Below are positions 15,380 through 61,792 of a stretch of DNA of 64,000 nucleotides, piece after piece. Source of the DNA: Pirellulales bacterium (GTDB lineage: Bacteria > Planctomycetota > Planctomycetia > Pirellulales > PALSA-1355); the NCBI GenBank assembly GCA_963733035.1, contig CAVTBU010000008.1, forward strand, positions 192,001 to 256,000, written 5' to 3'. Numbering within the stretch: position 1 is the first letter of the stretch; every line of letters begins with the position of its first letter. The notes under the pieces were generated by a model. The model did not search any database and was not told the origin of the DNA. It saw nothing but the letters and a program-made list of their open reading frames with translations. Position numbers and translations under genes: made by a program.

Positions 15380-15452
15380 TTAGGGACCAGCAACCGGAAC
15401 AGTTCACCTCTGATAGCATCCCATCTCAATCGAAGACAAAGGAGTGTTTCTC

Positions 15453-15842
15453 ATGTTGGTTCTTACCCGCAAAGCGAAGCAGCAAATTCAAATTGGTCCG
15501 TACGTCACGGTCACGATTCTGCAAGTGAAAGGGCAAGCGGTGCGGGTCGGCATCGAAGCCCCCAAGGATGTCACGGTATTGCGAACCGAGTTGGCCGAGA
15601 AGCTCGTGGACGGCAGCTTCGATCCGACGGTTTCGGCCGCGCTGGAAAAAGTCGAGCGCGAGTCGGAAATATCTTCGGCCCCGAAGCACGAACAAGAGAG
15701 TGGCCGAGCAAAACGCTCAGCCGGTGGGTCCCTGCGATGCCGGGCTCCTCGCGTCGATGTAGCACCATTGACTTCGCCCTACCAGTCGATGGGCCCGGCA
15801 TCGCTTTTACGGCCGCGTCGTCGTCGACTGACGACCAAGTAG
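15453..15842 (+). CDS. csrA: Carbon storage regulator CsrA paralog with C-terminal extension
   Basis: MLVLTRK...VRVGIEAPKDVTVLRTEL; AAGGAG RBS. Confidence 0.88.
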   Translation: MLVLTRKAKQQIQIGPYVTVTILQVKGQAVRVGIEAPKDVTVLRTELAEKLVDGSFDPTVSAALEKVERESEISSAPKHEQESGRAKRSAGGSLRCRAPRVDVAPLTSPYQSMGPASLLRPRRRRLTTK

Positions 15843-15971
15843 CAGCGGACACGAATCGGAGCGGAGTGCGTCCACTAAGGGGGCACGCCGAAGTCTCTGC
15901 CCCGAGCTTCGACGTACTGGACGGCTAGATCGACACCCTGGGATTGCCAAGCCACCCGTCGCACCCGCCCG

Positions 15972-16012
15972 CAGAGGCGGCCGCCCATCAGGCGGCCGCC
16001 TCTGTTTTTTTT
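15972..16012 (+). terminator. Rho-independent terminator
   Basis: 14-bp stem CAGAGGCGGCCGCC/GGCGGCCGCCTCTG followed by T8. Confidence 0.85.
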
Positions 16013-16148
16013 CGCCCGCGAAACCGAGTGCATCGCCGTTCCCCGCGCACCGCGCCGAGGTCCGAACTCGGTCGCGAACATGCTACACTCGAAACAGGAG
16101 TGCGACTTCTCCCATCGCCCAAGCTTTCCAAATCCTCCTCGCGCTGCC

Positions 16149-17930
16149 ATGCCCTCTGCCGACGAACTGCTCAGCACCGCCTTGGCTCAGCATCGCTCTG
16201 GCAATCTGCCACGAGCCGAGCAGCTCTACCGACAGGTGTTGGCCCAGGCGCCCGCGGCGGCCGATGCCTGGCACCTGTTCGGCGCGCTGTATGTACAGGA
16301 CGACCGGCCCGCCGAGGGCATCGCGGCCATCGAACGAGCCATCGACCTGAATCCCGCGAATGCCGACTACTACAGTCATTTGGGCGCCGCTCAAAGCAAG
16401 CTCGGCCAACACGAAGCCGCGCTTGAGAACCTCCGCCGCGCGGTCCGCCTGTCGCCGCAGTCAGCCATCTTGCACTACAACCTGGGCACGGCCCTGCGAA
16501 ATGCCGGACAACTGGCAGACGCCGTTGCCAGCTTTCGCCACGCCGTCGCTGCCGACCCTGCGAACTCCGAAGCTCACTTCAACCTGGCCAATGCGCTGCG
16601 CGATCTTGGGCAGTTTGCCGAAGCCGAAACCAGCTTTCGCGCTGCCCTGGAGGCGCGTCCGAACTATGTCAAAGCGATGGTCAACCTCGGTGGAGTCCTC
16701 AACGAACTCGAGCGTCGCGACGAAGGGATCGCCGTACTCATGCGCACCGTCGAGCTCGACCCGCGGCACGCCCGGGCCCACCTCAACCTGGGCAGCATCC
16801 TGCGCGACGCGGGCCGATTTGCCGAAGCCGTCGGCCATCTCGAGACGGCGGTCTCGCTGGCACCGAATCTTGCCGAAGCGCACAACAATCTCGGCACCGC
16901 CTACCAGGCGCTGGCCAGGTTCGACCAAGCGTCGGCATGTTACGAGCGGGCACTCCAGCTCGATCCCCAGCTTCCCGACGCCCATTTTTCGCACGCGACA
17001 AATCTCTTGCGGCTGGGATACCTGACCGAGGGCTTCGCCGAATACGAATGGCGCTGGAAGTGCAGCGGTTTCGCCGACCGCAAGTTCCCACAGCCGCGTT
17101 GGCAAGGCGAACCGCTCACGGCGCGCACGATTCTGCTGTTCGCCGAGCAAGGACTCGGCGACACGCTACAGTTCGTACGCTACGCGGCCGCAGTGCAAGC
17201 CCGCGGCGGCAAAGTGGTCGTCGAATGCCAGCCGCCGGTCGAGCCGATTCTGGCCGCCTGCCGGGGCATCGACCAAATCGTGGCCGCCGGTTCGCAATTG
17301 CCGGCCTTCGATGTTTGGTGCCCGTTGATGAGCCTGCCGGGCGTTCTCAAACTTGACGAAAGCCAACTCTGGCAAGGCCCCTACTTGACGCCCGATCCAG
17401 AACGCGTCGAAAAATGGCGCGCCCGCCTGGCCACGATTCGCGGCTTTCGCGTGGGGCTCTGTTGGCAGGGAAATCCGAAACACCTCTTTGATCGGCAAAG
17501 ATCCTTGCCGCTTGAATTGTTGGCGCCGCTGGCCGCCATTCCCGACGTGCAACTCATCAGCCTGCAGAAGGGCCCTGGCACCGAGCAGATTCGAGCGTGT
17601 TCGTTTCCGCTCCACGAATTGGGCGACACGCTCGATGCCGATGGCGCGTTTCTCGACACAGCCGCCGCCATGCAGCATCTCGATCTCGTGATCGCGGTTG
17701 ATACGGCGCTGGCCCATTTGGCGGGCGCGATGGATCGTCCGGTTTGGATTCCCCTCTCTGCCAACGGCGATTGGCGGTGGACTAGCGATCGCAACGACAG
17801 TCCCTGGTATCCCGGCACGCGGCTTTTCCGGCAGCACCGATTAGACGACTGGAACGAGGTGGTCGAGCGCATCGCCGGCGCCCTTCGCGCTCTGGTTGCC
17901 GAGCGAGACGGACAGTCCCGCGGCGCATAA
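16149..17930 (+). CDS. TPR-repeat glycosyltransferase (GT9-like C-terminus)
   Basis: Multiple AEAHxNLG TPRs; EQGLGDTLQF, VDTALAHLAGA, SPWYP. Confidence 0.88.
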   Translation: MPSADELLSTALAQHRSGNLPRAEQLYRQVLAQAPAAADAWHLFGALYVQDDRPAEGIAAIERAIDLNPANADYYSHLGAAQSKLGQHEAALENLRRAVRLSPQSAILHYNLGTALRNAGQLADAVASFRHAVAADPANSEAHFNLANALRDLGQFAEAETSFRAALEARPNYVKAMVNLGGVLNELERRDEGIAVLMRTVELDPRHARAHLNLGSILRDAGRFAEAVGHLETAVSLAPNLAEAHNNLGTAYQALARFDQASACYERALQLDPQLPDAHFSHATNLLRLGYLTEGFAEYEWRWKCSGFADRKFPQPRWQGEPLTARTILLFAEQGLGDTLQFVRYAAAVQARGGKVVVECQPPVEPILAACRGIDQIVAAGSQLPAFDVWCPLMSLPGVLKLDESQLWQGPYLTPDPERVEKWRARLATIRGFRVGLCWQGNPKHLFDRQRSLPLELLAPLAAIPDVQLISLQKGPGTEQIRACSFPLHELGDTLDADGAFLDTAAAMQHLDLVIAVDTALAHLAGAMDRPVWIPLSANGDWRWTSDRNDSPWYPGTRLFRQHRLDDWNEVVERIAGALRALVAERDGQSRGA

Positions 17931-17967
17931 AAAACCCCGGAACCTTGCCGCTACAAGATTCCGGGGT
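17929..17967. terminator. Stem-loop directly after the TPR-GT stop
   Basis: ACCCCGGAA/TTCCGGGGT with a 5' A-run. Confidence 0.5.
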
Positions 17968-18217
17968 CACGTGCACGACTGGCCATACGGCCAGCAGGGA
18001 CCCCTTCAGTGTAGCCGGGCTGCCCTGAAACACAAGTTTTCCAGTGGCATTTCCAGGGAGAATCCTGGGCTTCGACGACACCACGGCGGCGATGCGTCAG
18101 CCGCGTCGCGAGCCGCCGACGCATCGAAAAGCGTTGACGCTGGAAAATCGGGGCGGCTATACTGCGACTACCCCACATGCCGGCACTGGCCCAAGCTCCC
18201 GTAAGCCGAGTTGCCCG

Positions 18218-19850
18218 ATGACCTTCCGAACGCCAACCCTCGCCTGCCTCGTGCTTGCCACCGTCGTCGTGTGGCTCGTGCCTCGCACGGCGCGTTGAAG
18301 CCGCGACTCCGGCAAATTCCGATGCACCACCCGAGAATTCAACGGCCAACTTGCGGCTGAGCCCCGGCGATCTAGATGCCCTGATCGACGCCCAACCGGG
18401 CGCCGCCGATCAGCACGCCGATCAATCAGACGCCCAGTTTCTGCGTCGCTTGAGTTTCGACCTCATCGGCCGGCAACCGAAGCTGGACGAACAACGCGAG
18501 TACGCGTCCGACCAATCACCCGATCGCGACCAGCGAACCATTGAACGGTTGCTCGCCAGTGACGAATTCGGCGCGAATTGGGCGAACTACTGGTGCGACA
18601 CGATCGCCTATCGCGTCCCCCCGCCGGAACTGACTTACCTCAACTACCAGCCGCTCAAAACCTGGCTGGCCGGCAAGTTGAACGAAAACGTTCCCTGGAG
18701 CGACATCGTTCGCGCCTTGATCACGGCCACCGGCAAGGTCGACGACGTGCCGGCCGCCACCTTTGTCGGCTATCACGCCGCCAATGCCACGAACCTGGCC
18801 GGCGAAACGAGCCGCATTTTTCTCGGTCAGCAAATTGGCTGCGCCCAATGCCACGATCACCCGTTCGATCGTTGGCAGCGGTCGCAGTTTCATGAGTTGG
18901 CGGCGTTCTTCGCGCGTGCCAAAAGCAAGCTCCCCTGGAACGACGGTGGCGGCACGATCGTGTCGGCGGCCGACAAGGGGGAATACCTGATGCCCGACAT
19001 GGAAGATCCGCGCAAGGAGGGAAGCATGATGCAGCCCACCGTGCTCGATGGCGACCCCTTGGGCAACGGCAAGAGCGATGCCGAGCGGCGCGAGCAGTTG
19101 GCCGCCTGGATCACCTCGCGCGACAACCCCTGGTTCGCCCGCGCCCTGACCAATCGCATCTGGGCCCGCACGATGGGCCGCGGCTTCTACGAACCGATCG
19201 ACGACCTGGGCGATTCTCAAACTCCGCTCTGGAGCGAGGTGCACCAGGCGATCTCGGCCCATTTCAAATCAACCGGCTATGATCTCAAGGATCTGTTCCG
19301 CCTGATCGTCAGCACGAATGCCTATCGGCACGGCGTGCGCACGGCCGACGCGGCAACCGCCGAGACCGCGGCCGAAGCGCCGCTCCGCCTGCGCGGCGAT
19401 GAAGTCTACGCGGCACTCACGGTCGGCATCCAGCTGCCCAACTACACGCCCCCGAAAGTCGAACCGACCGACGCAATTCGTTTTCCGCCACCGCCCAAGA
19501 GCACGCGCGACCTGATTCATGCCGTGTTTGGCAACGACCCGTCGTTCGCGCCGGTCGATGCGCCGCGCACGATGTCGCAGGCACTCTGGATGATGAACAA
19601 CGAACAGTTGCAGGCGCAGATCGACGCCTCGCCCGACAGTGGCACGATGCTGGCCCGGTTGCTCGCCGCCCAGGCGGACGACGCCAATGTAGTTGGCCAG
19701 TTGTACCGCCGCGTGCTGGCCCGCGCGGCGACCGACAGCGAACGGCAACTGGCCCTCGACCACGTGCGCAGCGTCGGCGATCGGCGATCGGCATTCGAAG
19801 ACCTGCTGTGGGGCCTGGTCAACTCCACCGAATTCACCACCCGGCGTTAG
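18218..19850 (+). CDS. DUF1549/DUF1553 protein (CxxCH); apparent frameshift after the signal peptide
   Basis: FLRRLSFDLIGR, CAQCHDHPFD, NPWFARALTNRIW, WGLVNSTEF; signal peptide MTFRTPTLACLVLAT lies in another frame. Confidence 0.85.
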
Positions 19851-19858
19851 GCGGACTC

Positions 19859-21183
19859 GTGCTACACGAACAGACTATTCTCGACGTCGGCATGTCCCCC
19901 TCGGGCGTAATCAGCCGCCGCGGATTCCTCCGCCGCACGGCCGCCGCGAGTCTGGGACTCGGCGCTGCGGCTCGGCTGGCACGACCTGCTCGTGGCCAAG
20001 GCCGACGAACTTCGCCAGCGCGGCAAGTCGATGATCCTCTTGTGGATGGACGGCGGGCCGAGCCAGTACGACACGTTCAATCCCAAGCCGGGCTCCAAGT
20101 ACCAAGGCCCCGCGCATGCCATCAACACCGTGCTGCCCGGCGTGCAAGTGGCCGAAGATTGGCCGCAAATGGCCCGCAAGCTCGACCAGGTAGCCCTCGT
20201 GCGTTCGATGGTCAGCGACGAGAAGGATCATGAGCGCGATCGCGCTGGTGCGAACCGGCTACCATCTGACGCCGGCGGTCCGCTATCCCACGTGGGGCGC
20301 CGTCGTGGCCCGCGATCGCCAGCGCTTCGAAGCGGACTTGCCGTCGTTCGTCCGCATCGGCCGGCCGCGGATCACCACCCGCGACGTCGACGCCGGCGTG
20401 CTGGGCGTTCGCTACAACCCGTTCAAGGTCGACGTGCCGGGCAAGTTGCCGCCGAACGTGGCGCCCACGGTTCCCCCCAGCGTGGTCGAGCGCCGCCTGG
20501 CGCTCACCGAACGGCTCGACGCCGAGTTTGCCAAGCGCGGGGGCAGCCAGGCCGTCGCCGAAAAGCAGGACGTCTATCGCCGCACCTCTCGCATGGTGCT
20601 CAGCCCGCGGGTGGGCGTGTTTGATCTGTCGAACGAGCCCGACCCGTTGCGCGATGCCTACGGCCGCACCGAATTCGGCCAGGGCTGTCTGTTGGCCCGG
20701 CGGTTGGTGGAGCAGGGGGTCAGTTTCGTCGAGGTGATCAGCACCGGTTCGGTCGGCGACCAGGGTTGGGACACGCACAAGCTCGGCTTCGAGCAGAACC
20801 CGCTGTTGTGCAACGAGGCCGACCCGGCCTATGCCACGCTGCTAACCGATCTGGCCGATCGGGGCCTGTTGGAAAACACGCTCGTCGTGTGGATGGGCGA
20901 GTTCGGCCGCACGCCCAAGTTCAAACCCGACGGCGGCCGCGAGCACTACAGCGAAGGCTGGCTCGTGGGCCTCTCCGGCGCCGGCGTGCGCGGCGGCCAG
21001 GTCATCGGCGCCACCGACCCCGACGGCGTGCACGTCACCGATCGCCCGGTGGGCGTGGGCGACCTGTTCATGACCTTCTGCCAGGTGCTGGGCATCGACC
21101 CCACCGAGGAATACATCACCGCCGACCGCCGCCCCATCAAAATCGTCGAGCACGGCGAAGTGATTGGCGAGCTGTTCGGCTAG
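19859..21183 (+). CDS. DUF1501 protein with Tat-like signal; two apparent frameshifts (near 19970 and 20235)
   Basis: SRRGFL, LWMDGGPSQYDTF, LLARRLVE, GWDTH, GEFGRTP spread over three frames. Confidence 0.85.
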
Positions 21184-21386
21184 CTGCCGCCTGGCGGTTC
21201 GTTTAATGCTTCAGCCTGGGCAGCGACTTTCCCTTGGATCCCAGCCTGTATTACACACTGGACCTGGTGAACGGCGGATTGCGGCCAGCCGAGGCAACTT
21301 CACAGTGTGTCTCGATTTGCTTGCTTCGGCCGCCGCTCGTATCCTGGCAACCGTGCGTCACCGTCGTCTCTCCCCAGGTATAAGCA

Positions 21387-23658: not shown

Positions 23659-23744
23659 CTTTGTGACTTCGTGCCTTGGTGGTAAATCCCTTGCTTGGAC
23701 TTTACGACAGAAGAATCAACCACCAAGGCACCAAGAACACAAAG
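23659..23744. repeat. Imperfect ~25-bp inverted repeat (REP-like)
   Basis: CTTTGTGACTTCGTGCCTTGGTGGT ... ACCACCAAGGCACCAAGAACACAAAG. Confidence 0.65.
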
Positions 23745-24859: not shown

Positions 24860-24952
24860 ATGTTTGGAGTGAACCGAGTCAACGGAATTCAGCGTGGTAA
24901 CGCGACGCGCGGCGAACGGGTCGACCGCGAACTTGAGAAACGAAGTCACATC

Positions 24953-24987
24953 AAAAAAGGGGCCGGAAGCACATGCTCCCGGCCCCT
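24953..24987 (-). terminator. Rho-independent terminator between convergent genes
   Basis: AGGGGCCGG/CCGGCCCCT stem with an A6 run (U-tail on the minus strand). Confidence 0.75.
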
Positions 24988-25009
24988 GCGTTGCTACCCC
25001 GTGCTTCGC

Positions 25010-26437
25010 TCAGTTGCCGCCGGCGGTTGTGGCGGCCGAGTCGATCGGCGGCGTGGGCTGCTTGTATTCGTGAGGCAGCACGTCCGGCACGACTTTCACG
25101 CGCGTGGTGACCTTCAAGGGCGGCGAACCCGGGTTCGCGTAAGTCAATTCGATCATGTAGGCCGTATAGCCTTCGGCCGGCTTTTCGACGCCGCCCGAAT
25201 AGCTGCCGTCGGCACTGGCCTCGAGCGACTTGCTCTTCCACACGCGGCCGATGCGATCGACGCGGAAGTCGCGGGTCTTGGGATTCGTGGCATGCCACAA
25301 CTTGACGGCCGTCGGCTTTTGATCGCTCGTCACGCGCATCGAGTCGTCATCCTTGACTTCCCAGGAATACACCGGAAGTTTGGTACCGTTGATCACCGAG
25401 TTGTAAAACGAAAGCAGCGTGAACGGCACGTCGGTTCCGCGCAGGCTATGCTCGGCATTGGGCACATAGCGGAGGTACTTCGGCGCGGGCAGATCGTCCC
25501 AATAGAACTGCGACGAATCAGGCAGGAAGAACTGATCGCCCGTGGCGTTGACAACGTACTTGGGCATCGTCAGCCGGCTTCGATATTCGTACGGCTCGAC
25601 GATCTTCATCAGGGCCGCGTACTGCGGCGAACCGCTCCACTGCATGATCTTTTCGGCCGTGTAGTCGCCGACGGCCGGAGCCCAAAAGCCGTAGGCTTTC
25701 CAGTGATGCTCGAACGACGGGACGATGTTGAGCATGTCGATTACCAGTGGCACGATGCCCACCACGCGGTTGTCCACGCACGCGGTCGTCCAGGTGGTCC
25801 AGCCGCGCTTCGAGCCGCCGCAGACGACGAACTTGTCGACCTTTACCTTGCCCCCTTCGTCGGTGGCGCAAAAATCGGTGACGGTGTCCATCGCTCGCAC
25901 GGCCGCCTTGGTCATCGGCAGGCGAGCCGGCCACTTCGTGTCGCCCGTGCGGAGGAACTTGTCCCAGGTGTAGGCAATCAGCGAGTCTTCGGTCCGCTTG
26001 CGGGTTTCGCCGTTAAAGACCACCGGCTCATTGGGAACCATCTTCAATTCGGTGACGACCGAATTGCTCCCTTTGGCCAGCTCGGAAGTCAATGGATCGA
26101 CCTTGTCCGGAGGCGCGCCCCCGTTGCTCCCTCCCGAAATGTAGAGCAGACCGAGCGAGGTTTGCACGTTGTCGGGTCGGGTGACGATCATCCAATGTTT
26201 CCACACCGGCTGGTCAACTTCATCGGTCGACAGCCAGGTTTGCGAGGTCATCTCAAGCACGTAGGTCGTGAAACCGTCGCCGGGAAGCGTATTGATCAGC
26301 TTGTAGCTGTAGGTCGGGTCCGGTTTGGCCACGTATTCGTCGAGCGGCGTGCGCTCCTCTCCGGGAGCGGCACCCATGAACAGGACGCAAACGAACAGTA
26401 GCAGGGCAGGTGCCCATCGATCAGCGAGGCGATGCAT
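25010..26437 (-). CDS. PhoPQ-activated pathogenicity-related (PqaA-type) alpha/beta hydrolase
   Basis: MTSQTW, GGSKRGWTTW, ATGDQFFLPD, VPNAEH. Confidence 0.88.
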   Translation of the reverse strand: MHRLADRWAPALLLFVCVLFMGAAPGEERTPLDEYVAKPDPTYSYKLINTLPGDGFTTYVLEMTSQTWLSTDEVDQPVWKHWMIVTRPDNVQTSLGLLYISGGSNGGAPPDKVDPLTSELAKGSNSVVTELKMVPNEPVVFNGETRKRTEDSLIAYTWDKFLRTGDTKWPARLPMTKAAVRAMDTVTDFCATDEGGKVKVDKFVVCGGSKRGWTTWTTACVDNRVVGIVPLVIDMLNIVPSFEHHWKAYGFWAPAVGDYTAEKIMQWSGSPQYAALMKIVEPYEYRSRLTMPKYVVNATGDQFFLPDSSQFYWDDLPAPKYLRYVPNAEHSLRGTDVPFTLLSFYNSVINGTKLPVYSWEVKDDDSMRVTSDQKPTAVKLWHATNPKTRDFRVDRIGRVWKSKSLEASADGSYSGGVEKPAEGYTAYMIELTYANPGSPPLKVTTRVKVVPDVLPHEYKQPTPPIDSAATTAGGN

Positions 26438-26750
26438 GGCGGCGGGTCCTCATATCACTCGGGAAGCCGGAAGGAGAGAAACGTCCAGAGAACGCAGAAC
26501 TTGCAATGTAACTACCCGCGGGGTCAGGCTCAATCGATCACCGAAAAAACCGGCCGCAAGGCTGACTTAACCCGAGCTACTCGATGCGTCTAGCCGCGGT
26601 GTGAGTTCGACGGACCCAGGGAGCGGCTGCCTGCCGGTTCGCCCGCCAGATTGACTTTGGCCGGCCGCCAATGCTAGAATCCGCTTCCGATCAAGGATGG
26701 TTGATGCGTTTCGAATCGGCCCAAGTTCCTTGGAGTAGGGAGGGGGGAAC

Positions 26751-30946: not shown

Positions 30947-31216
30947 TCAGGCCGCCATCCGGTGCGGTTCGATTTCCTCGAATAGGTTGACCGTCCGCAG
31001 CATGTTGCCGTCCGCGTCGTAAAACTGCACCAATCCCACGTCGATCATCCACATGGCGAGGAAGTCGTCGACGCGATAGCTGCGGGCCACGTAGCGGCCG
31101 TCGTCAAGCATGATTCGCTCATCGACGTCTTGCAGGGCGTCCTCGTCCACATCGAGTTCGAGAAACGTGCGGTGTACAATCGTACGGATTTGATCGGGCG
31201 TCGGTAGAACGGTCAT
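30947..31216 (-). CDS. Small conserved hypothetical protein
   Basis: AAGGAGG RBS; compact acidic 89-aa ORF with coding-like codon usage. Confidence 0.8.
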   Translation of the reverse strand: MTVLPTPDQIRTIVHRTFLELDVDEDALQDVDERIMLDDGRYVARSYRVDDFLAMWMIDVGLVQFYDADGNMLRTVNLFEEIEPHRMAA

Positions 31217-31555
31217 AAACGCAACCTCCTTGTTGCTTGGACCCGGCGGTCCGTGCCGGGCTCCACTCGGAATGCGAGAGTGTAGCGTGCGGCCTTGCTT
31301 TGATGAAGACGAGGTTTTCGCCGGACCGGCGATTTGGCCCGTGATATCATCTCCACGATATCAAGATCGGCCGTCGGCAAATCAGGTCTTGACGAATCCG
31401 CCCCCGGTAGGCCGAAACATCTGCGCTGCATCGACGCAAGTCGTTACGCTGCGCGGTCCACGTGCCTGTCAATGGTCATTTGACCGGGCGGGCGGCTGCT
31501 GTCATCTTGGTACAGGCGGCACACGTTCAAATGTTTTTCGAGGGGACCACGCCAG

Positions 31556-32483: not shown

Positions 32484-32699
32484 ATGCTCGTCTTATCTCG
32501 GAAGGTAAACGAGACCATCATCATTAACGACAACATCGTGATTACCGTCGTCGACATCCGCGGCGACAAGGTCCGGCTTGGTATCGAAGCGCCAAAGGAC
32601 GTTCCGGTGCACCGCCAGGAGGTGTACGACGCGATTAAACGTGCCGAGGGAACGGAAGGCGCACACAGGGCAGATTCCTCGAATTCTTCGAACTCATAG
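32484..32699 (+). CDS. csrA: Carbon storage regulator CsrA
   Basis: MLVLSRKVNETIII...VRLGIEAPKDVPVHRQEVY; AGGAGG RBS. Confidence 0.95.
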   Translation: MLVLSRKVNETIIINDNIVITVVDIRGDKVRLGIEAPKDVPVHRQEVYDAIKRAEGTEGAHRADSSNSSNS

Positions 32700-32708
32700 G
32701 GAGATCCC

Positions 32709-33029: not shown

Positions 33030-33091
33030 CGACCAACCAGCTTGAGCGAGATACAACGGCAGCCGGAAAGGAATCTGGCTAGCCACGTAGC

Positions 33092-34672: not shown

Positions 34673-34821
34673 GATCTCATGAACCACCCTGGATCAGGAC
34701 GGTCGACTGGGGAGAACGACATTCCGCATGCTGAGGACACGCGCGACGCAAGCGGTCTCCATTATCCCGCGTCAAATCAATCAGGTACGTAATTTGCCTG
34801 CGATCACGTCCGCATTCGGAG

Positions 34822-34892
34822 CTGCCCAGCAAGGATTCGAACCTTGACTAAATGGTTCAGAGCCATTCGTGCTACCGTTACACCACCGGGCA
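34822..34892 (-). tRNA. tRNA-Gln (anticodon CUG), CCA not encoded
   Basis: TGCCCGG-TGGTGTAACGGTAGCAC-G-AATGG-CT-CTG-AA-CCATT-TAGT-CAAGG-TTCGAAT-CCTTG-CTGGGCA-G: full cloverleaf with U1-A72. Confidence 0.95.
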
Positions 34893-39041: not shown

Positions 39042-39132
39042 GATAGCGCTCCGCATCCTTTCGTTTCGCTCTGCTACGGGCCTCCTTGCCCGCAGTTGTG
39101 GCAAACGATTTTGGCCCCTCCGTCGCTGGCCG

Positions 39133-40080: not shown

Positions 40081-40731
40081 CTAGCGGCGCGGCGTGCCCC
40101 GCGGTTGAGCGGCCACGGCTGCCTTGCGGTTCAAGTCAGCCAGGATCACATCGGTGATGTCAATGTTCTTGTCGTAGTACATGACCAACTTGAACACTTC
40201 CATCTGCACCATTTCACGGTTATTCGGGTCGATGGGAGCACCGTTAAACCGCAGCACGAGCTGAATCCCATGTTGCTGTGAATACTCGGCAACCGCGGCC
40301 GTCAGCTCCTGGTAAGCCTTGAGATAGTAGGTGCTCTCCTTCTCGGCGAAGTCACGGCGCTTCGAAGCGACATCCAACTTCCAATCGCTCTCGGCCTTCG
40401 TGATCTCTTCCTCAAGCCGCTTGTATTCAGGACTCCCCGGCTGGAACGCCTTCAATCCTTCGGCCTTCTTTTGGATGCCGTCGCGGACCTTCTTGAGATC
40501 GTCCTCAGCCTTCTGCGCGAGGTTCTTGTAATACTCCATCGCGCTCTTGAGCTTGGAGTAGTTTTCAAGAATGAAGGTAACATCGATCACGGCGATGCCG
40601 TGCGGGCAACTTGGCGCTGCTGCCGGAGCGGCCGGACGAGCGAGCGGTTGCGGTTGCGCCAACACGCGGTCGGCAGCGCACGCAAAACAAGCGACGGCCA
40701 CGAGCGTGGCCACGAAGAGAGATGTTCGCAC
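40081..40731 (-). CDS. skp: OmpH/Skp periplasmic chaperone
   Basis: Signal peptide, IAVIDV, long helices, IDITDVIL; upstream of the lpx genes. Confidence 0.85.
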   Translation of the reverse strand: MRTSLFVATLVAVACFACAADRVLAQPQPLARPAAPAAAPSCPHGIAVIDVTFILENYSKLKSAMEYYKNLAQKAEDDLKKVRDGIQKKAEGLKAFQPGSPEYKRLEEEITKAESDWKLDVASKRRDFAEKESTYYLKAYQELTAAVAEYSQQHGIQLVLRFNGAPIDPNNREMVQMEVFKLVMYYDKNIDITDVILADLNRKAAVAAQPRGTPRR

Positions 40732-40736: not shown

Positions 40737-40821
40737 AGCACTCCTTGCTGTAGACGGCTGGTCGTCCGTGACCTTGCGCTGTCCATCCGCAGGACATTCC
40801 GACCGGACCTGTCCAAGCAGG
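40737..40821 (-). promoter_or_regulatory. Leader with four GGA-loop hairpins (putative CsrA sites)
   Basis: CCTG-CTTGGA-CAGG, TGTCC-TGCGGAT-GGACA, GGTC-ACGGAC-GACC and AGCA-AGGAG-TGCT (the RBS). Confidence 0.6.
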
Positions 40822-41018
40822 GCCCGGGGGGGGTCGATTTCAGGGCGGTATTCTGCCGAGAAGGCCAATTTTCGTAAAGGCCAATAATCGCCCGCGTTTT
40901 CCCGAGGGTTCGCCAGCTATCGCCCAAGCTTCATTTACACGCGAATTGCAATCCGGCGTTCAAAACGCGTCTTGCGTGCTCAGCGCGGAGGACAGGCCAA
41001 ACGGGGTTCGCAATTAGC

Positions 41019-45794: not shown

Positions 45795-46180
45795 AAAATC
45801 GCCCTTTCCTGAATTGCGTGCGATCTAGTAAAAGCAGGCAAGTCCTACCGACCCCCGTCGGTCCTGTGCTTGCAACGGATTAGGTAAACAGGGCCGGTCG
45901 CACGAAGCAATGTAATATAAGTCCAAGCGCCGTGGCGATAAACCACCTAGGGCGGCGAATTGGCCACGCCGTGGGCTAATTGGCTCTGATGACCTCGAAC
46001 GGCACTCCACACTAGCGCGTGCAAGCTTGGCTAGCGGGATTTGGCTAGCAAAACCCAAACCTTTTCTTGCACTCACGCCGGAGAAGAATTGCTGCTGTAT
46101 GCCGGACGCAAGAGGCCCGAAGCGCCGCTTCGCGCGATTTTCAATCGTCCGGGTTCAGCAACTCTGTCAGGAGACAATTG

Positions 46181-48762: not shown

Positions 48763-48835
48763 GATTTTAGCCTCCTGCTTCATGGCCGACGCGTGCTCGA
48801 AATTCGTCACGCGCGGGTAATCCACGTCCTTGGTT

Positions 48836-49723
48836 TCATCCGGCGCGTTTCGCAACGCGGAGCTTCGCGCTATGCGCGCGGGGATTTCGCAAGACTTCGG
48901 CTTCGCTCGGCCTGAGCGGTTTGCGGGTGACCATCTCCCAGCGCTGGTCGTCACGAAATGCTTCTTTAATGATCCGATCTTCCAGCGAGTGGAAACTGAT
49001 TGCCGCCAGTCGTCCGCCCGGCGCCAAGTAGTTCGGAAAAATGGCCAACGCTCGGCGAAGCGACCCCAGTTCGTCGTTCACGGCAATTCGCAAGGCCTGG
49101 AAAGTTCGAGTCGCCGGATCGATCCGCCGGGTGTCGGCCGATCGGGGAACCACGGCCCGGACCAGGTCCGCCAGATCCTTGGCAGTGCGAATTGGCTGTG
49201 TGGTTCTACGCTCGACGATCGAGCGGGCAATTCGTCGGCTATGCCGCTCTTCGCCCAGCTGATAAATCAGATCGGCAAGCTCCGTGACTTTCAGTCGCTC
49301 AAGCAGTCGCCACGCCGGCTCGCCACTATCGGTGTCAAAGCGCAGATCGAGCTCTCCCGCCGAGTCGAAGCTGAATCCGCGCTCGCTGTCGGCAAGCTGA
49401 TCGCTCGATAGTCCCAGATCGAGAACGATGCCATCAACCCTGTCGATTCCCACTTGCTCGAGCACTTCACCCAGTTCGCAGAAGTTGGCGGCGGCGATTT
49501 TCACCGGCAGGCCGGCCAGGTTGTTCTCCGCGGCCGCCAAGGCCGTCTCATCACGGTCAAGCGCAATTACCAGCCCATCAGCTCCAACCTTCTCGGCCAA
49601 GGCTCGGGTGTGTCCGCCACCGCCGAGCGTGCCATCAATGAACGTCTGACCGGCGCACGGCTGGAGCGCTGCCACGACCTCGTTGAGCATGACCGAAATG
49701 TGAATGGAAGGGGAAGGGGACAT
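48836..49723 (-). CDS. rsmH: 16S rRNA m4C1402 methyltransferase RsmH
   Basis: HISVM, DGTLGGGGH, DLGLSS, FQALRIAVNDEL, SFHSLEDR, NPRAHSAKLR. Confidence 0.95.
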   Translation of the reverse strand: MSPSPSIHISVMLNEVVAALQPCAGQTFIDGTLGGGGHTRALAEKVGADGLVIALDRDETALAAAENNLAGLPVKIAAANFCELGEVLEQVGIDRVDGIVLDLGLSSDQLADSERGFSFDSAGELDLRFDTDSGEPAWRLLERLKVTELADLIYQLGEERHSRRIARSIVERRTTQPIRTAKDLADLVRAVVPRSADTRRIDPATRTFQALRIAVNDELGSLRRALAIFPNYLAPGGRLAAISFHSLEDRIIKEAFRDDQRWEMVTRKPLRPSEAEVLRNPRAHSAKLRVAKRAG

Positions 49724-49803
49724 GCCGCGCGAGTAATCGGTGGGTATGGTTGCCAGTGCCATCCCCCGCATTGAAACCACAAACTGCAAATGGGGACAGG
49801 TCA

Positions 49804-49995
49804 AAGCCCCGACCCGGGACACCTCCTTGCGCCCGGGATGGTGGGGCTTGCGGGACGCGGCCTCTAGCACCGCGCTCCGCTGACGTTCGCAAAACCCGAT
49901 AGCAATCCTTGCTTCGGGCCTGTCGAGCCGCAGGCGGTCAGTCGGTGGCCTGTGACTGACCTCCCAGCTCGCACAAGCAAATTGCGAACGTCGGA
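49804..49995 (-). ncRNA. Candidate structured cis-RNA between mraZ and rsmH
   Basis: 11-bp closing helix enclosing three hairpins, then two more hairpins; G-U pairs favour the minus strand. Confidence 0.5.
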
Positions 49996-50063
49996 CGGAC
50001 AAACCTGGCATGAACTCCTGCGATTAGGCCACCCGCCGTGTAGCGTATTGATCTGCTTCTCCC

Positions 50064-50513: not shown

Positions 50514-50517
50514 GCTT

Positions 50518-50573
50518 CACCACAAATCCCCACAACTCACCAACGAAGCCCAAAGATAGCCAGTTCCCGCCAT
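50518..50573 (-). promoter_or_regulatory. MraZ-binding repeat array
   Basis: TGG recurs six times at exact 10-nt period just upstream of mraZ (GTGGTG, GTGGGG, TTGGTG, TTGGGC, CTGGCT, ATGGCG). Confidence 0.75.
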
Positions 50574-55873: not shown

Positions 55874-56551
55874 CTATTCCAGCCTCATCATCCGCCAAGA
55901 CGGCGGCAGCGGGGCAACCAAGTCTATCGGTATGTGACGAACGGGATGATCCACCACGAGCCGCCGAGCGTGCAGGGCCATTCCTGCCGGAAATGCTCGT
56001 GCCCGAGCGTACTTGCATTCACCCCATACCGGAAAGCCCCGCGAGGCGAGCTGGACGCGAATTTGGTGTTTTCGGCCGGTCAAAAGCTCGATTTCTAACA
56101 AGTTTCCGCCTGAAACCTGCTGCTTCAATCGGTACCGCAGACGTGCTTCCTTGGCGCCTGACACGTCGGCCGTCACCACCGCCATTCGCTGCCGAAGATC
56201 ATCTTTGACCACCCAATCGACCAGTTCGGCCTCGGGGGGCTCGATTTTTCCAGATACGATCGCCCAGTAGCTTTTCTGCACCGCGCGGCTGCGGAATTGT
56301 TCGGAAAGCCGCGCCGCCGCTTTGGAGGTGCGAGCCAGGATCACCACTCCAGATGTCGCGGTATCGAGTCGTGAAACAACACCGAGATAAACGTTGCCCG
56401 GCTTCTGGTAACGCCGTTTGATATACTGCCGGGCCAGCACAACCAGGCTGGTTTCGCCGGCGGCGACGCCCATCGTGGCCAACCCCGGCGGCTTATTGAC
56501 GGCGAGCAGATGATTGTCTTCAAAAAGGATTTCCAGATTGCTTGAATTCAT
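55874..56551 (-). CDS. RluA family pseudouridine synthase
   Basis: NKPPGL, SRLDTATSG, TGRKHQIR, LHA. Confidence 0.92.
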   Translation of the reverse strand: MNSSNLEILFEDNHLLAVNKPPGLATMGVAAGETSLVVLARQYIKRRYQKPGNVYLGVVSRLDTATSGVVILARTSKAAARLSEQFRSRAVQKSYWAIVSGKIEPPEAELVDWVVKDDLRQRMAVVTADVSGAKEARLRYRLKQQVSGGNLLEIELLTGRKHQIRVQLASRGFPVWGECKYARARAFPAGMALHARRLVVDHPVRHIPIDLVAPLPPSWRMMRLE

Positions 56552-56630
56552 CGTCAAGATGGAATCGCGCGGGTGTCGGAATCAACCTAGCCAGAAACCA
56601 CAACGGCGCGACAATCGTATCAGATCGTAG

Positions 56631-57248
56631 ATGACCACGCCTGACGCCAAATTGATCCTGGCCAGCGGTTCCCCGCAGCGCAAGGCGTTGCTCACCGCCG
56701 CCGGCTACGCGTTCCGCGTCGTTGCGCCCGGCGCTGCCGCCGAATGCGGTGTTTGCAGCCGCGAAAGCCCTGGCGAATTGGTCGCCCGACTGGCACGTCA
56801 GAAAGCCGCCGATGTCGCAACGCAGTTGGCAACTGAAGCGGCCTCGCACGAGATCATCGTGGCTTGCGACACCGTGGCCGAATGCCTGGGTAAAATTCTC
56901 GGCAAACCCGTAAATCGAACGCATGCGCGGGAAATGCTGCAGTTATTGAGCGGCCATGAGCATCGCGTCTACAGTGGGTTGTGCCTGTGGCCCCGAGACA
57001 AGCGCGAGCCCCAAACCCGTGTCGCCCGCACGACATTGCGAATGGAGGCCCTTGATGATCAACGAATCGACGAATACTTGAACAGCGGGCTGTGGGAGGG
57101 CAAGGCCGGGGCGTTTGGCTATCAGGACCGAGTGGACTGGCTGTCAATCGTCGCAGGTAGTGAGTCGAACGTAATTGGGCTGCCAATGGAGCTGCTGGCC
57201 GCGATGTTTTCGGGCAGCCCAATCGCTAATGAAAATTCTGTGGGGTGA
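56631..57248 (+). CDS. maf: Maf family nucleoside triphosphate pyrophosphatase
   Basis: LILASGSPQR, CDT, LGKP, GKAGAFG, NVIGLP. Confidence 0.92.
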   Translation: MTTPDAKLILASGSPQRKALLTAAGYAFRVVAPGAAAECGVCSRESPGELVARLARQKAADVATQLATEAASHEIIVACDTVAECLGKILGKPVNRTHAREMLQLLSGHEHRVYSGLCLWPRDKREPQTRVARTTLRMEALDDQRIDEYLNSGLWEGKAGAFGYQDRVDWLSIVAGSESNVIGLPMELLAAMFSGSPIANENSVG

Positions 57249-57500
57249 CCCCTCCCAAGGGTAATGCCTCCCGCCGTACGATTGCAGGGGAAGTTACAAT
57301 TGAATGGTGTGCCCCAACCGACATTCGATTGAGCTGCGGGGGCCCTCTCTTGCCGCTGCCCAGCCGGCAACGATAAGGTGTAAGTTGGTGGTTTCGTGGA
57401 CATTTCTTGCCGCCAACAGAACTCTAGAATCCATTGACTTGCGACCGCCACGGGCCGGATCCGGTCTGTCGCGGTTCGTGCTGGCAACGAGACCAAATTG

Positions 57501-59525
57501 ATGCTTGCCTACCTGGTCATTCGTGAGGGCTCAAAATGGGCCGACGTCTTCCGACTGGTTCCCGGCCAGGCGGTGACGATCGGCCGCGCCCCGACCAATC
57601 AGGTGGTAATCAAGGACGAGCGTTGTAGCCGTTGCCACGCCGAAATCTTCTTTTCCGAAGATCGGTGGGTACTTCGAGACCTGGATAGCCGCAATGGTAC
57701 GGCGGTGGGAAGCACGCGAGTACGCGGCGACTACGTTTTACAGGCCGGCAATATTGTGCGGATCGGCCAATCTCAACTGCGTTTCGTGCACGACCTTTCG
57801 AAGGCGTTCACCGAGAGCAACATCGTTCCACAGGACGAAATCTCGACTGCGGCTCCCGTCGAGGCGAGCAAGACTCCGCCGGCCACGGACGATTCAAGCG
57901 TGCTTTCGATCCACGAACCCTCCACGATCACGCACCGCCGAATGCAGACCCGGTTTCTGGAACCGCACGAACCGGAAGAAAACTTGCCAAAGATCGGTCA
58001 GGCCGCCGCGAGCTTATGCCGCCTGGCATTCGAATTGGCGCAGGCCCCGGATCTGACCACGATTGCCGACCTGGCGTTGGCCGGCGTGTTTCAAGCGACC
58101 CAAGTGGACGCCGGCGCCGTGTTCGTTCTGCCGCGGCACTACGAGGGCGAACCGCACGTGAACGATCTGGAAATGATCGCCGCTCGCACGGATTCAACCG
58201 TGCCTTATCACCGCGTCTCGGGAGTACTAGCATCCACCGTACTCCGCGAAGGAGAAGCCGTGTTGGCCCGAAACGTAATGGGCGACAGCACGCTAGGTAG
58301 TCGCGACAGCAAGGGTGTGGTGGACGCCACCAGCGTGATCTGCGCCCCCATTCGCCGTGGCAAACGCGTGTTGGGTCTCATGCACTTGTATTCAACTGAC
58401 GACGATCGCGTGCCGGATCCGGACGATCTGGAATTCACGCTGGCCGTGGCGAACACCGTGGCCGTGGCGATCGACAACCTGAGCAGTCGCGAAGAGTTGG
58501 CCGAGGACCTCAGCCATATTCGAAATGAAAACTTGCAACTGCGCGAACGACTGGGTGTGCAGAGCGAGATCGTCGGCTCAAGCATTGCGATGGCCAAAGT
58601 GGCACAGGAAATCGGCCGCGCAGCGCCCAGCCGCGCCACGGTGCTCATCCGCGGCGAAAGTGGCGTGGGCAAGGAACTCGTGGCTCGGGCCGTGCACTTC
58701 TCGAGCCCGCGTCGCAAGGGACCGTTTGTGTGTGTCAACTGCGCGGCCTTGTCGCGGAGCCTACTAGCCAGTGAGCTATTCGGACACGAGGAAGGCGCGT
58801 TCACCGGGGCCACGCAGCGTAAGATGGGCAAGTTCGAGGCATCGGACACCGGCACGCTAATGCTCGATGAGATCGGCGAAATGAGCCCGGCCACGCAGGC
58901 CAAGTTTCTCCGCGTATTGGAAGGGCATCCGTTCGAACGCGTCGGCGGCACGGAAACGATCAAGGTCGATGTTCGCGTGATCGCAGCGACAAATCGGGAC
59001 TTGGAGCGCGACGTGGCCGAGGGTCGCTTCCGTCGCGATCTTTATTTTCGCCTTCGCGTCTTGGAAATCCTCGTGCCGCCGCTGCGCAAACGCCCCGAAG
59101 ACATTCCTGAACTGTCGCACTACTTCTTACAGAAGTTCAATACCGAAACCGGGCGCAAGCTGCGGGGCTTTACGCCCCCGGCCATGGAGTTGATGCGCAA
59201 GTACCGTTGGCCCGGCAACGTCCGCGAGTTGAAGAACGTGGTCGAACGCGCCGTGGTACTGGCCCGTGGTGAATTTCTCGAGCCAGACGACCTGACACTC
59301 TCCAAACTATCCACCGCTGGCGACACGGCGGAAAATGCCGTTAGACCGGACGAGTTCCAACCGGCCTCGCTGGCGGAAGTCGAGCGCGAGCACATTTTGG
59401 CAACTCTCTTGGCCACGGGCTGGAACAAGAGCCAAACGGCGGCGCTGCTGGGAATTGAGCGAACCACGCTCGACCGCAAGATTCGCCGCTACGAACTGCT
59501 CGACGAGCGCGCCAAACGAGGCTAA
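57501..59525 (+). CDS. FHA-GAF sigma54-dependent transcriptional activator
   Basis: FHA (IGR, SRCH, SRNGT), [25 protein letters not shown], Fis-type HTH. Confidence 0.94.
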
Positions 59526-59631
59526 ACAAGCTCGCCTCGCTCGCACCCCATGACTAAACTGGGGCTGGCAACAAACGATATCCTCGGCGGAACCAGCCGC
59601 CCCGACTGTCTCCTACCCCAGGCCCCCTTTC

Positions 59632-60732
59632 ATGAGAAATCTACGAGCCGCGGTCATCGGCCGCACTGGACACGGCGACTACGGACATGGCATCGACCTC
59701 GTTTGGAACGACCTCCCAGGAGTCGAACTGGTGGCCGTAGCCGATGACAACAAGATGGGCCTGGCCAAAAAAGCTCAGCAGCTCAAAATCGACAAAGCAT
59801 ATGCTGACTACCGGAAAATGCTCGATGAGGTGAAGCCCGACCTGGTCAGCATCGGTTGTCGCTGGCTCGATCAACACCACGACATCGTCGTGGCCGCCGC
59901 GGACCGAGGTGTCCACATCTACCTGGAGAAGCCGCTCTGCCGCACCCTGGCCGAAGCCGACGAGATGGCGGATGCGCTGGAAAGGACCCACACCAAGCTT
60001 GTCTGCGCCCACACGACGCGGCACAGTCCCAGGCTGAAAGTCATGCAACAGATGATCGCCGATGGCAAAATCGGCCGCATTCTGGAGCTACGCGGGCGGG
60101 GAAAGGAGGATCACCGGGGAGGCGGCGAGGACCTATGGGTGCTTGGCACGCACATCATGGACTTGATGCGCATTTTTGGCGGCGACCCGGCCTGGTGCTA
60201 CGCGATGGTCCATGCGGGTGGAGAGCCCGTGACGAAAGCTGACGTCGTCGAGGGCGCCGAGGGCATCGGCCCTCTGGCCGGAGACGCCATTGCCGCGATG
60301 TACGGAATGCCCAACGACATCACCGCCTACTTTGCCACCCAGCGCAAGGCGGCCCCTAAACGCACCCGTTTTGGCCTGACAATCTTAGGCACCGAGGGCG
60401 TGCTGGAAATGTCAACCGGATATCTTCCGGCCGTCAAGTTTCTTCCCGAGTCGAGTTGGTCGGCCGGTCAAACGGGCGCCAAGTGGCAAAACGTGACGAG
60501 CGCCGGCATCGGCAAGCCTGAGCCACTCACGCGTGACAAAGATCCGAACGGCAATCGCCCCTGCGTTCTCGAATTGTTGTCATCGATCCGCGAGAACCGC
60601 ACGCCCAGCGGCGGCATCTATGACGCCCGCGCCGCAGTCGAAATGATCGTCTCCGTGTACGAATCGCATCGACTTGGCGGACCGGCAAAGTTTCCGCTGC
60701 AAAACCGCGAGAACCCCCTGTTGTCGCTCTGA
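59632..60732 (+). CDS. Gfo/Idh/MocA oxidoreductase
   Basis: AAVIG, YLEKP, GTHIMD. Confidence 0.88.
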   Translation: MRNLRAAVIGRTGHGDYGHGIDLVWNDLPGVELVAVADDNKMGLAKKAQQLKIDKAYADYRKMLDEVKPDLVSIGCRWLDQHHDIVVAAADRGVHIYLEKPLCRTLAEADEMADALERTHTKLVCAHTTRHSPRLKVMQQMIADGKIGRILELRGRGKEDHRGGGEDLWVLGTHIMDLMRIFGGDPAWCYAMVHAGGEPVTKADVVEGAEGIGPLAGDAIAAMYGMPNDITAYFATQRKAAPKRTRFGLTILGTEGVLEMSTGYLPAVKFLPESSWSAGQTGAKWQNVTSAGIGKPEPLTRDKDPNGNRPCVLELLSSIRENRTPSGGIYDARAAVEMIVSVYESHRLGGPAKFPLQNRENPLLSL

Positions 60733-60842
60733 TAACTGCGCAGCAGTCAATATCGAAGAGGAGTCTCCCCCGTTTCACACTCTCGCCAACTCAGAGCACG
60801 GGCGGCATGGATAGACGCCGCGTGTTCTACCCATAAAAGCGT

Positions 60843-61253
60843 CTAGCGAACACTTACGCTCGTGGCGTCCGGCTCGCCGACGTTCAGGAATGCCTCGACG
60901 CTACCTGCACTCTGGGCCCCGGTCAGTTGCTTTCGGGTCCAGCTACCATCCGATTTCTTCTGAAACATCACGAGCTGAGGAATTGAGCCCCCCTTCATCA
61001 GCTTGCCGGCCAGCGCGCTGTCAGCATCCGTATTAACGTAGGCGAAAGCTACCTTGCCCAGAGCGCCTTTCTTTTCGACCTCAGGCAACGTGGAGTACTT
61101 CATGGTCCGGCAACCTGGACACCAGTCGGCACCCACGAGAACGACGAGTGGCTTGCCCGTCTCTTCGGTCTGCTTGAAGGCGGTGGCGTAATCGTTTGCG
61201 CCGGCGGTCAGGGCCGCGGCCGACAGAAGCATGTTGAGGGTCAGGTGAATCAC
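60843..61253 (-). CDS. Secreted thioredoxin-family protein
   Basis: Signal peptide, GADWCPGC, SIP cis-Pro; AAGGAG RBS. Confidence 0.85.
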   Translation of the reverse strand: MIHLTLNMLLSAAALTAGANDYATAFKQTEETGKPLVVLVGADWCPGCRTMKYSTLPEVEKKGALGKVAFAYVNTDADSALAGKLMKGGSIPQLVMFQKKSDGSWTRKQLTGAQSAGSVEAFLNVGEPDATSVSVR

Positions 61254-61792
61254 GTTGAGACGCTCCTTCGTGAAAAAAGGTACGAACACGCGTTGTAAAA
61301 CGCCGCGTGTGATGTCGGCCCCAAGGGGAAAACCGCGAACTCAAAACTCGAGTCGCTTGGCGGCTGGGAGGGGGACTTAGGCGGGCCGACGACCGTCAAC
61401 TTCGACGCTCATTTGGCGGCGGCTTCCGTTCCACTCCTCGCTAGTCGAACTGGGCGGTCATCGGTTTCAAATTCGAGGCTCCAGTCTAACCGGGGGATCT
61501 ATGCATGCAACCGTAAAGAAGGGAAACTTTTCCATATCCACAGGTGGGGTAATTGCTAGCTACGAGACATCCAGATCCCGCCGTGCATCGCGGCTACGAA
61601 CTATCCGTGCGACACGTAAGCCCTTTTCAGATAAGGGACTCGAATTGTCACCGATGGGCTTCGCGGTGATTGAGAATTCGACGCCGCCCGATATAATCAC
61701 CTGCGGTTCGGGCACGATTGACAGCATGGGCTCATTTCTCGCTATTTCGCACGGAACTCCTCGCCCCCGGGCCTTGTTTCAAAGCCATTCTT

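Follow-up and report, generated by a model that had tools for sequence, protein, structure and literature searches.

Conserved ANGGAN-hexaloop hairpins as putative CsrA-binding sites in leaders of envelope genes of a Pirellulales bacterium

The closest described relatives of the elements reported here are the targets of CsrA/RsmA/RsmE repression. According to excerpts of PMC7652899, the high-affinity targets of RsmE are hairpins with an ANGGAN hexanucleotide loop in which the N positions vary, two sites 10-63 nucleotides (nt) apart are bridged with an optimum above 18 nt, and CsrA acts on termination and RNA stability. The same ANGGAN consensus, together with a role of Arg44 in RNA binding, is given in the excerpted text of PMC3791407. 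We analysed a window, by which we mean the whole stretch of 64,000 nt at G000:C8:192001-256000 in the 6.65-Mb genome of a Pirellulales bacterium, along with the rest of that genome, for hairpins that present ANGGAN in a six-nucleotide loop (hexaloop) on the mRNA strand. As in RsmE-hcnA (PDB 2JPP) and RsmN-RsmZ hairpin 2, the same hexaloop, with its fixed A and GGA, lies on or near the Shine-Dalgarno (SD) sequence. This strict hexaloop is a real, conserved regulatory signal, genome- and class-wide rather than window-specific, and we hold with good confidence that the conserved hairpins are putative binding sites of one or more of the 14 CsrA proteins encoded in the genome. The planctomycete proteins match PF02599 and the PDB chains of CsrA/RsmA/RsmE and keep Arg44; they differ in that the described regulators were shown biochemically, in Gammaproteobacteria with 1-3 paralogs, whereas there are 14 paralogs here and 2-17 across the class.

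Planctomycetes are rich in csrA. Excerpts of PMC13443453 describe the gene as highly prevalent in Planctomycetota, with up to 15 paralogs per genome, the excerpted PMC12316311 reports sigma54 promoters at csrA in Planctomycetia, and FliW is proposed as a CsrA antagonist in Planctomycetes in an excerpt of PMC4682653. The excerpt of PMC9029176 lists only 8 small RNA families for the PVC group. In the planctomycete csrA literature that we found, the abundance of the gene is noted and its targets are unnamed; in line with the original prediction, which was aware of none, no mapped Csr regulon was found among planctomycetes by literature searches whose coverage leaves out most subscription papers. 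Post-transcriptional control in planctomycetes is nearly unexplored.

All 14 csrA genes of the genome match PF02599 above the curated cut-off (53-93 bits), with L2, L4, R6, G33, R44 and E46 invariant in 14 of 14. Two of them lie in the window, as had been predicted, and one carries a hexaloop on its own SD:

15453-15842, plus strand: csrA paralog 1 (csrA1), 129 amino acids (aa) with a long C-terminal tail; PF02599; L4, R6 and R44 kept
32484-32699, plus strand: csrA paralog 2, 71 aa, top Pfam score of the 14
15434-15449, plus strand: csrA1 SD hairpin, ANGGAN hexaloop, stem of 5 base pairs (bp)

The PDB relatives of paralog 2 are CsrA/RsmA/RsmE (E 2e-15 to 7e-15). The gene is present in 2-17 copies in 131 of the 131 genomes of the class that were searched, this one counted, and in 101 of 251 genomes of a phylum sample, with 0-2 copies outside the class. 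Pfam also confirmed the names of the HU, lpxA, lpxC, OmpH/Skp, DUF1571, LysM, mraW/rsmH, mraZ and thioredoxin-like genes of the window. A hexaloop of at least 3 bp is found at the csrA1 SD in 12 of 15 relatives having csrA at the same place, and this hairpin is likely a putative autoregulation site. No evidence ties the hexaloops to the two csrA genes of the window over the other twelve. The single fliW of the genome adjoins one csrA, which recalls the B. subtilis CsrA-FliW-flagellin switch; unlike that switch, only 1 of the 14 paralogs is in a fliW context, and the hairpins lie on non-flagellar housekeeping genes. A 3-bp hexaloop covers the SD of two further paralogs (G000:C5:401551, C5:1348172), hinting at cross-regulation among them, and another paralog, at G000:C4:205526-205672 (minus), is a fusion of 257 aa.

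The genome-wide tests used 5543 genes called by a hexamer model, with approximate starts. GGAG and AGGA are most frequent 10-15 nt upstream of these starts and a standard anti-SD is present, so that GGA near a start is expected. We distinguished a strict class (ANGGAN hexaloop, stem of at least 4 bp) from a loose class (A(N)GGA in any small loop), and tested 25 loop geometries at SD sites, permuting 5' flanks among sites that share the two preceding bases. The hexaloop with 4 bp was in excess at AAGGA sites (23 vs 7.4 expected) and also at A[CGT]GGA sites (20 vs 8.8), which make no stronger SD; the geometry test on SD sites lacking the -2 A gave 7 vs 12.6 and 28 vs 27.7 expected. Two wider loops were raised as well at AAGGA (z 4.1 and 3.6), the first of which shares its helix register with the hexaloop. 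Pooled and stratified by GC content, 43 of 887 SD sites carry the strict hexaloop against 15.6 expected (z 7.0), and 20 against 5.8 at 5 bp, compared with 35 against 42.5 among 2051 SD sites without the -2 A. No excess of ANGGA hexaloops was found in coding sense and coding antisense sequence (samples of 6000) or in the antisense of leaders. A test free of gene calls, in which AAGGAN is followed by ATG and flanked by three exact pairs, gave 40 of 942 vs 17.7.

Most of the signal is on the SD itself and less of it lies elsewhere. Once duplicates, one repeat family and all sites with a start codon 3-16 nt downstream were left out, leaders 20-150 nt upstream held 16 hexaloops of 5 bp vs 5.8 expected, a value reached in 0 of 1000 permutations; the antisense control gave 13 vs 12.2 at 5 bp and 26 vs 33.3 at 4 bp. 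Within the window, strict sites account for 6 of 45 sense non-coding ANGGA, plus the site in the 3' untranslated region (3'UTR) of the HU-family gene described below, vs 0 of 34 antisense; the figure for the rest of the genome is 124 of 3203. The excluded repeat family carries a CATCGC-ATGGAT-GCGATG hairpin in about 12 places (C5:1996171, C6:921661, C10:190559 among them) and probably represents the opposite strand of a coding repeat that the gene caller overlooked.

These figures bear on the simplest alternative, in which the sites are plain Shine-Dalgarno sequences whose stems arose by chance and nothing is bound to them. GGA is the core of the SD, the anti-SD is standard and the loose motif occurs at chance, all of which suit this explanation, and it fits the DUF1571 site, perhaps those of the thioredoxin, LysM, DUF1501 and fabI genes, and about 16 of the 43 SD sites. 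It leaves the 2.8-fold excess of one loop geometry, which needs the -2 A and is absent in csrA-less genomes, unaccounted for, as well as hairpins away from the SD that are conserved with variable N positions and compensatory changes in their stems; for skp, lpxA/lpxC, lpxD, waaA and the mraZ-rsmH RNA it is already refuted by conservation. As a general account its probability is next to negligible.

Conservation was followed for the lpx and skp sites across 80 lpxC loci, the nearest relatives by lpxC being Pirellulales and other Planctomycetia records. Pairs of sites separated by 10-63 nt, one of the two on the SD, are seen at skp, lpxA and a gene of 89 aa:

39074-39095, minus strand: lpxA hairpin between lpxC and lpxA, hexaloop, 8 bp, some 40 nt upstream of the start of lpxA; non-SD
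40760-40773, minus strand: skp upstream hexaloop, 4 bp, 23 nt before the SD site; non-SD
40737-40749, minus strand: skp (OmpH) SD site, AAGGAG in a 7-nt loop, start GTG at 40731; downstream half of the two-site leader
30947-31216, minus strand: gene of 89 aa, candidate target; no match in Pfam or NCBIfam
31221-31236, minus strand: SD hairpin of the 89-aa gene, hexaloop, 5 bp
31245-31257, minus strand: second site of the 89-aa gene, ACGGA in a 7-nt loop, 23 nt upstream of the SD site

The lpxA hairpin is present in 17 of the 18 closest relatives. In an alignment of 16 sequences, with 3 near-duplicates left out, 88.5% of the cells of its stem pair, with 16 both-side changes (0 of 500 shuffles as high; slid controls pair at 38-48%), and G-C and A-U pairs are swapped for G-U. 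With near-duplicates removed, there are 16 hexaloops in 57 lpxA leaders and 25 in 70 lpxC leaders, against 0.4 in shuffles and 0 in antisense. Those in lpxC leaders occur in more distant lineages and are often paired, which indicates that the site moves within the operon. The upstream hexaloop of skp is kept in 59 of the 72 loci with an anchorable SD site (window included, near-duplicates kept, 8 of 80 loci unanchored). Its N positions take all four bases (N2 A25/C16/T14/G3; N6 A26/C23/T8/G1) and 57 of 58 spacings between it and the SD site fall within 18-29 nt. At the 89-aa gene, the SD hairpin is kept in 4 of 4 relatives with loop AAGGAG or ATGGAG, and GGA is found at the second site in 4 of 4, as a strict hexaloop in 1.

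The E. coli glgC leader, in which an upstream hairpin and an SD site are bridged by one dimer, is the nearest described counterpart of these arrangements: the skp spacing of 18-29 nt is in bridging range, and lpxA and the 89-aa gene look similar to the two-site leader. Unlike glgC, the targets here are outer-membrane, lipid A and peptidoglycan genes rather than genes of glycogen synthesis, and sites shift between lpxA and lpxC. Over the genome, a second 4-bp hexaloop within 120 nt is found at 3 of 43 SD-hexaloop genes vs 9 of 844 others, and any upstream ANGGA at 16 of 43 vs 222 of 844. A genome search with a model of the two-site skp leader gave no second good match. A promoter-like TTTACG-17 nt-CAGAAT at window positions 40850-40878 (minus) is conserved in the majority of skp orthologs, with the hairpin some 80-100 nt downstream of it, so that both skp sites would fall in the 5'UTR.

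The skp element is a conserved dyad, GGTC-N6-GACC, with little covariation, and would in itself suit another reader, either a different RNA-binding protein or a transcription factor on inverted-repeat DNA. Such a reader is very improbable, given that stems vary from gene to gene around a constant loop, that the excess is on the mRNA strand only, that G-U replacements occur in the lpxA stem, and that the loop is exactly the published CsrA consensus in a genome with 14 CsrA genes.

Outside the window, 40 of the 43 SD-hexaloop genes were scanned by their first 200 residues at most, one doubtful call being left out. Many had no domain match. Among the matches are lolC/E, murE, waaA, lpxD, fabI, an arnT-like transferase and an OmpA-domain protein, joined by a TonB receptor, a FadL-like porin, an rmlD-like gene and two glycosyltransferases; glutamate dehydrogenase, cysS, methylases and parA were matched as well, and a murA match is an internal start. 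The SD hairpin is kept in relatives in 17 of 18 cases for lpxD, 16 of 19 for waaA, 5 of 5 for murE and 5 of 5 for lolC/E, with 0 in antisense. In lpxD and waaA, the 5' arm is rich in purines and pairs with a UCC 3' arm. Tandem leaders with 2-3 strict hexaloops, the closest pairs of which are 19-30 nt apart, make the best further candidate targets (C6:810043-810175, minus; C6:221402-221426, plus; C7:304593-304623, minus; C5:2290546-2290571, plus). The gap convergent with glgC (G000:C6:183100-183720, plus) holds one 8-bp ANGGAN hairpin and a terminator.

Stems of the lpxD and waaA type could also damp ribosome access by themselves, and the hairpins might then be protein-free RNA structures that tune translation or mRNA stability. 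Many of them are on the SD, and covariation is evidence of structure, not of a ligand. Such structures would have no need of the invariant loop A and GGA at the non-SD sites of lpxA, upstream of skp, in the HU 3'UTR and on the terminator cap described below; in addition, there is mostly no enrichment for loops of other sizes or for SDs that lack the -2 A, and csrA-less genomes are without excess. We consider this explanation unlikely.

Across genomes, the hexaloop signal was found only where CsrA is encoded, with no excess in csrA-less genomes, although kinship is confounded with this division and two csrA-rich families are without signal. The same pipeline applied to the csrA-less genomes G049 (1.2 Mb) and G027 (0.4 Mb) gave 6 of 275 vs 8.5 expected. 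A 2x2 pattern test, which compares paired with crossed purine/pyrimidine stems around AAGGAN before ATG, was picked on the present genome among 15 designs tried and then applied to 80 other genomes; its counts, transcribed by hand, contain coding noise. In 40 csrA-rich genomes the odds ratio was 1.45 (1.25-1.69), exceeding 1 in 30 of the 40; in 40 csrA-less genomes it was 1.06 (0.90-1.24), exceeding 1 in 17 and falling to 0.82 without G065; for 20 of these 40 the zero csrA count rests on absence from the match list of the phylum sample. The rank test between the two sets yields p 0.0004, which is overstated because the csrA-rich genomes are one class and the csrA-less genomes others, so that kinship is confounded. 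In the csrA-less G065, one search pattern has 161 matches vs about 10 elsewhere and corresponds to a high-copy repeat.

Besides this confounding, several observations weigh against CsrA binding as the common explanation or narrow it. The original prediction had taken loose A(N)GGA-loop hairpins for the signal, and these are at chance level vs antisense and shuffles in both genome and window: in leaders with start-proximal sites removed, hairpins are formed by 101 of 684 ANGGA in sense, 111 of 757 in antisense and 93.9 in shuffled sequence, and the counts within the window are 22 of 67 sense vs 14 of 55 antisense. When all loops of 4-6 nt on a 5-bp stem were surveyed without bias, GGA loops did not exceed the controls, with the exception of A(N)GGA pentaloops (37 vs 20 antisense and 29 shuffled). 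Enrichment outside the SD is absent for the loose motif and present for the strict hexaloop at 5 bp; at 4 bp it is marginal (24 vs 16.9, 61 of 1000 permutations). Chance alone would produce about 16 of the 43 SD sites, so that each member needs its own test, and signal-peptide-like N-termini among the 43 are at background (15 of 43 vs 240 of 844, p 0.39). The fabI SD hairpin is kept in 3 of 18 relatives only (antisense 0), the lpxB and lpxK leaders of this genome hold no hexaloop, and the five candidates were chosen as envelope-looking, so that their conservation does not measure envelope enrichment. The skp stem is kept mostly by identity, with weak covariation (7 both-side changes). The csrA-rich genome G323 (8 csrA), of which 0.8 Mb was analysed and which is underpowered, gave 5 of 132 vs 3.0 at 4 bp (170 of 1000) and a marginal 4 vs 1.4 at 5 bp (45 of 1000). 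In the pattern test, the csrA-rich families f89 (odds ratio 0.86) and f90 (0.91) were without signal, and csrA copy number did not correlate with the odds ratio (Spearman 0.19, p 0.23). Finally, about half of 555 CsrA homologs failed to repress the GGA leader of B. subtilis hag in an excerpt of PMC13443453, from which it follows that not every paralog need be active. The predicted Csr regulon of envelope, lipid A and division-related genes is well supported by enrichment and conservation for the ANGGAN hexaloop and unsupported for the loose motif; as for covariation in orthologous leaders, it is present in the lpxA stem, weak at skp and lacking at the thioredoxin gene.

If CsrA binds these hairpins, a protein seated on the hexaloop would block ribosome loading on skp, lpxA or lpxC, lpxD, waaA, lolC/E, murE and csrA1. 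Repression would be direct where the loop is the SD, as at lpxD, waaA, murE, lolC/E, csrA1 and the 89-aa gene, whereas in the two-site leaders of skp and lpxA the protein might be tethered at the upstream hairpin and bridge to the second site, as a CsrA dimer holding an ANGGAN hexaloop can do towards an SD site in other bacteria. Two other elements of the window, in the HU 3'UTR and between mraZ and rsmH, may act differently:

33061-33080, plus strand: HU-family 3'UTR hairpin, hexaloop, 7 bp, directly before a terminator hairpin
49797-50008, minus strand: mraZ-rsmH structured RNA, about 210 nt, single copy, ends in a terminator-like hairpin
49817-49834, minus strand: terminal hexaloop of this RNA, ANGGAN loop capping the last, terminator-like hairpin
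49901-49913, minus strand: second site of this RNA, ANGGA in a 7-nt loop

Of 6 relatives, 4 retain the HU hairpin, their loops being ATGGAC, AGGGAA, ATGGAA and AAGGAA. The mraZ-rsmH RNA is a new, uncatalogued structured RNA. Its fold has a z of -4.4, and both-side changes number 24 over 14 sequences (0 of 500 shuffles), scored on a structure derived from the same alignment; the spacer has no Rfam match, and an E-value search gave one chance hit. A spacer hexaloop is found in 17 of 19 relatives having mraZ beside rsmH, the A, GGA and closing pair of the terminal loop are invariant in alignment A3 except for one gap, and ANGGA is present at the place of the second site in 12 of 14 aligned sequences. 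A model search recovered the RNA in 25 of 33 loci, 14 of these being training sequences. With strict filters, it was recovered in 4 of the 14 genomes searched from the same order and in 0 of the 46 from further away. It usually lies directly 5' of rsmH; it was also found once with mraZ and no rsmH, at least once with rsmH and no mraZ, and in one distant match with neither gene within 1.5 kb. A sigma70-like promoter was found only before mraZ (50580-50553, minus).

Like the CsrB/CsrC and RsmX/Y/Z sponges, the mraZ-rsmH RNA is structured, ends in a terminator and presents GGA loops; unlike them, it has two or three GGA sites rather than many, and no Rfam match. For this RNA and the HU 3'UTR, we more speculatively propose control of termination or stability, or a role as a low-valency CsrA sponge. 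This leads to a reading that shares the binding claim and differs in outcome, namely that CsrA binds but mainly activates or stabilises the mRNAs, or that the RNAs are sponges. It is most plausible for these same two elements, whose conserved sites are far from any start, and the variable neighbourhood of the mraZ-rsmH RNA and the action of CsrA on termination and RNA stability in the excerpts of PMC7652899 speak for it. We also list on its side that no convincing CsrB-like cluster of GGA hairpins was found in non-coding DNA, where the best windows held 4-5 loose hairpins. Against it, most of the excess is directly on the SD, where a bound protein would keep the ribosome away, and the mraZ-rsmH RNA, with its few GGA sites, is mostly directly 5' of rsmH. 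We give this reading a small but appreciable chance.

Several features of the mraZ-rsmH region stand apart from the hexaloops. In 16 of 16 aligned sequences the first long hairpin has the unchanged loop GGCCAC, which in several of them could pair with a downstream GTGGC stretch in a possible pseudoknot, and the 5' GTCCGTCCG of the RNA is nearly invariant and unpaired in the consensus fold. GTGG(G) direct repeats at 50514-50545 (minus), between the sigma70-like promoter and the mraZ start, resemble the MraZ operator. A leader-peptide reading of the spacer (open frame 48836-50011) was rejected, its start codon and frame not being kept in relatives, and so was a promoter reading of an AGGAG...CGTC pair at the spacer 5' end, the spacing of which varies from 5 to 17 nt.

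Repression by CsrA at the hexaloops would, if true, mean that CsrA governs essential envelope biogenesis in this bacterium. A short list of conserved candidate targets is gained (skp, lpxA/lpxC, lpxD, waaA, lolC/E, murE and csrA1, with exact loop bases), on which paralog specificity is testable with native RNAs. A wider picture, which we put forward only tentatively and with more doubt than confidence, is that in Planctomycetia a flagellar regulator may have turned into a family of 2-17 paralogs that is the main translational control of envelope growth, the mraZ RNA being a CsrA-gated terminator or sponge. Envelope growth would here comprise lipid A synthesis, lipoprotein export, outer-membrane protein chaperoning and peptidoglycan synthesis, linked to the division-and-wall cluster; this part, too, is conceivable rather than probable. 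Such a many-paralog growth circuit would differ from the enterobacterial Csr system, which is a single protein buffered by CsrB.

The remaining hairpins that had been proposed for the window are less secure:

26688-26703, plus strand: DUF1501 hairpin, hexaloop, 5 bp, about 50 nt before the gene; uncertain
46165-46176, plus strand: DUF1571 SD with a 4-bp stem, AGGA tetraloop, C at -2, 8 nt before ATG; rejected
48769-48779, minus strand: LysM gene SD, AGGAG pentaloop, no -2 A; uncertain
61260-61271, minus strand: thioredoxin-like gene SD hexaloop, 3 bp, at SD distance from GTG; uncertain

Conservation of the DUF1501 hairpin (3 of 5 relatives) is confined to the genus. The thioredoxin hexaloop is identical in 3 of 4 relatives, again of the same genus only and without covariation, and is absent from the predicted minimum-energy fold. 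Of 8 relatives, 5 have the identical LysM pentaloop and 1 has a strict hexaloop in its place; the pentaloop geometry is not enriched genome-wide (16 vs 14.3), and the LysM site is possibly a weaker CsrA site. The DUF1571 site is an ordinary SD with a chance stem, at least 3 bp being found in 2 of 8 relatives with a visible start, and the hairpin proposed there is not kept.

All eight stretches quoted in the original prediction were found at the positions given, on the mRNA strand. As strict hexaloops, the named sites of csrA1, DUF1501, the HU 3'UTR and lpxA held up, and those of DUF1571, LysM and thioredoxin (3 bp) did not. Four sites had been counted in the skp leader, of which one is strict and a second is the SD site in its 7-nt loop; the pairs proposed at the small 89-aa gene and between mraZ and rsmH each consist of one strict hexaloop and one site in a 7-nt loop. 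The statement that several sites are too far from a start to serve as SD is borne out for lpxA and the upstream site of skp, whereas those of csrA1, the small gene, DUF1571 and LysM are the SD itself.

Elsewhere in the window, a 513-aa plus-strand open reading frame (ORF) at 24860-26401 has no Pfam match, and the codon model prefers an overlapping minus-strand ORF at 25010-26377. Rfam at the gathering score over the window matched tRNA only; a tRNA-Gln(CTG) lies at window positions 34821-34892 (minus).

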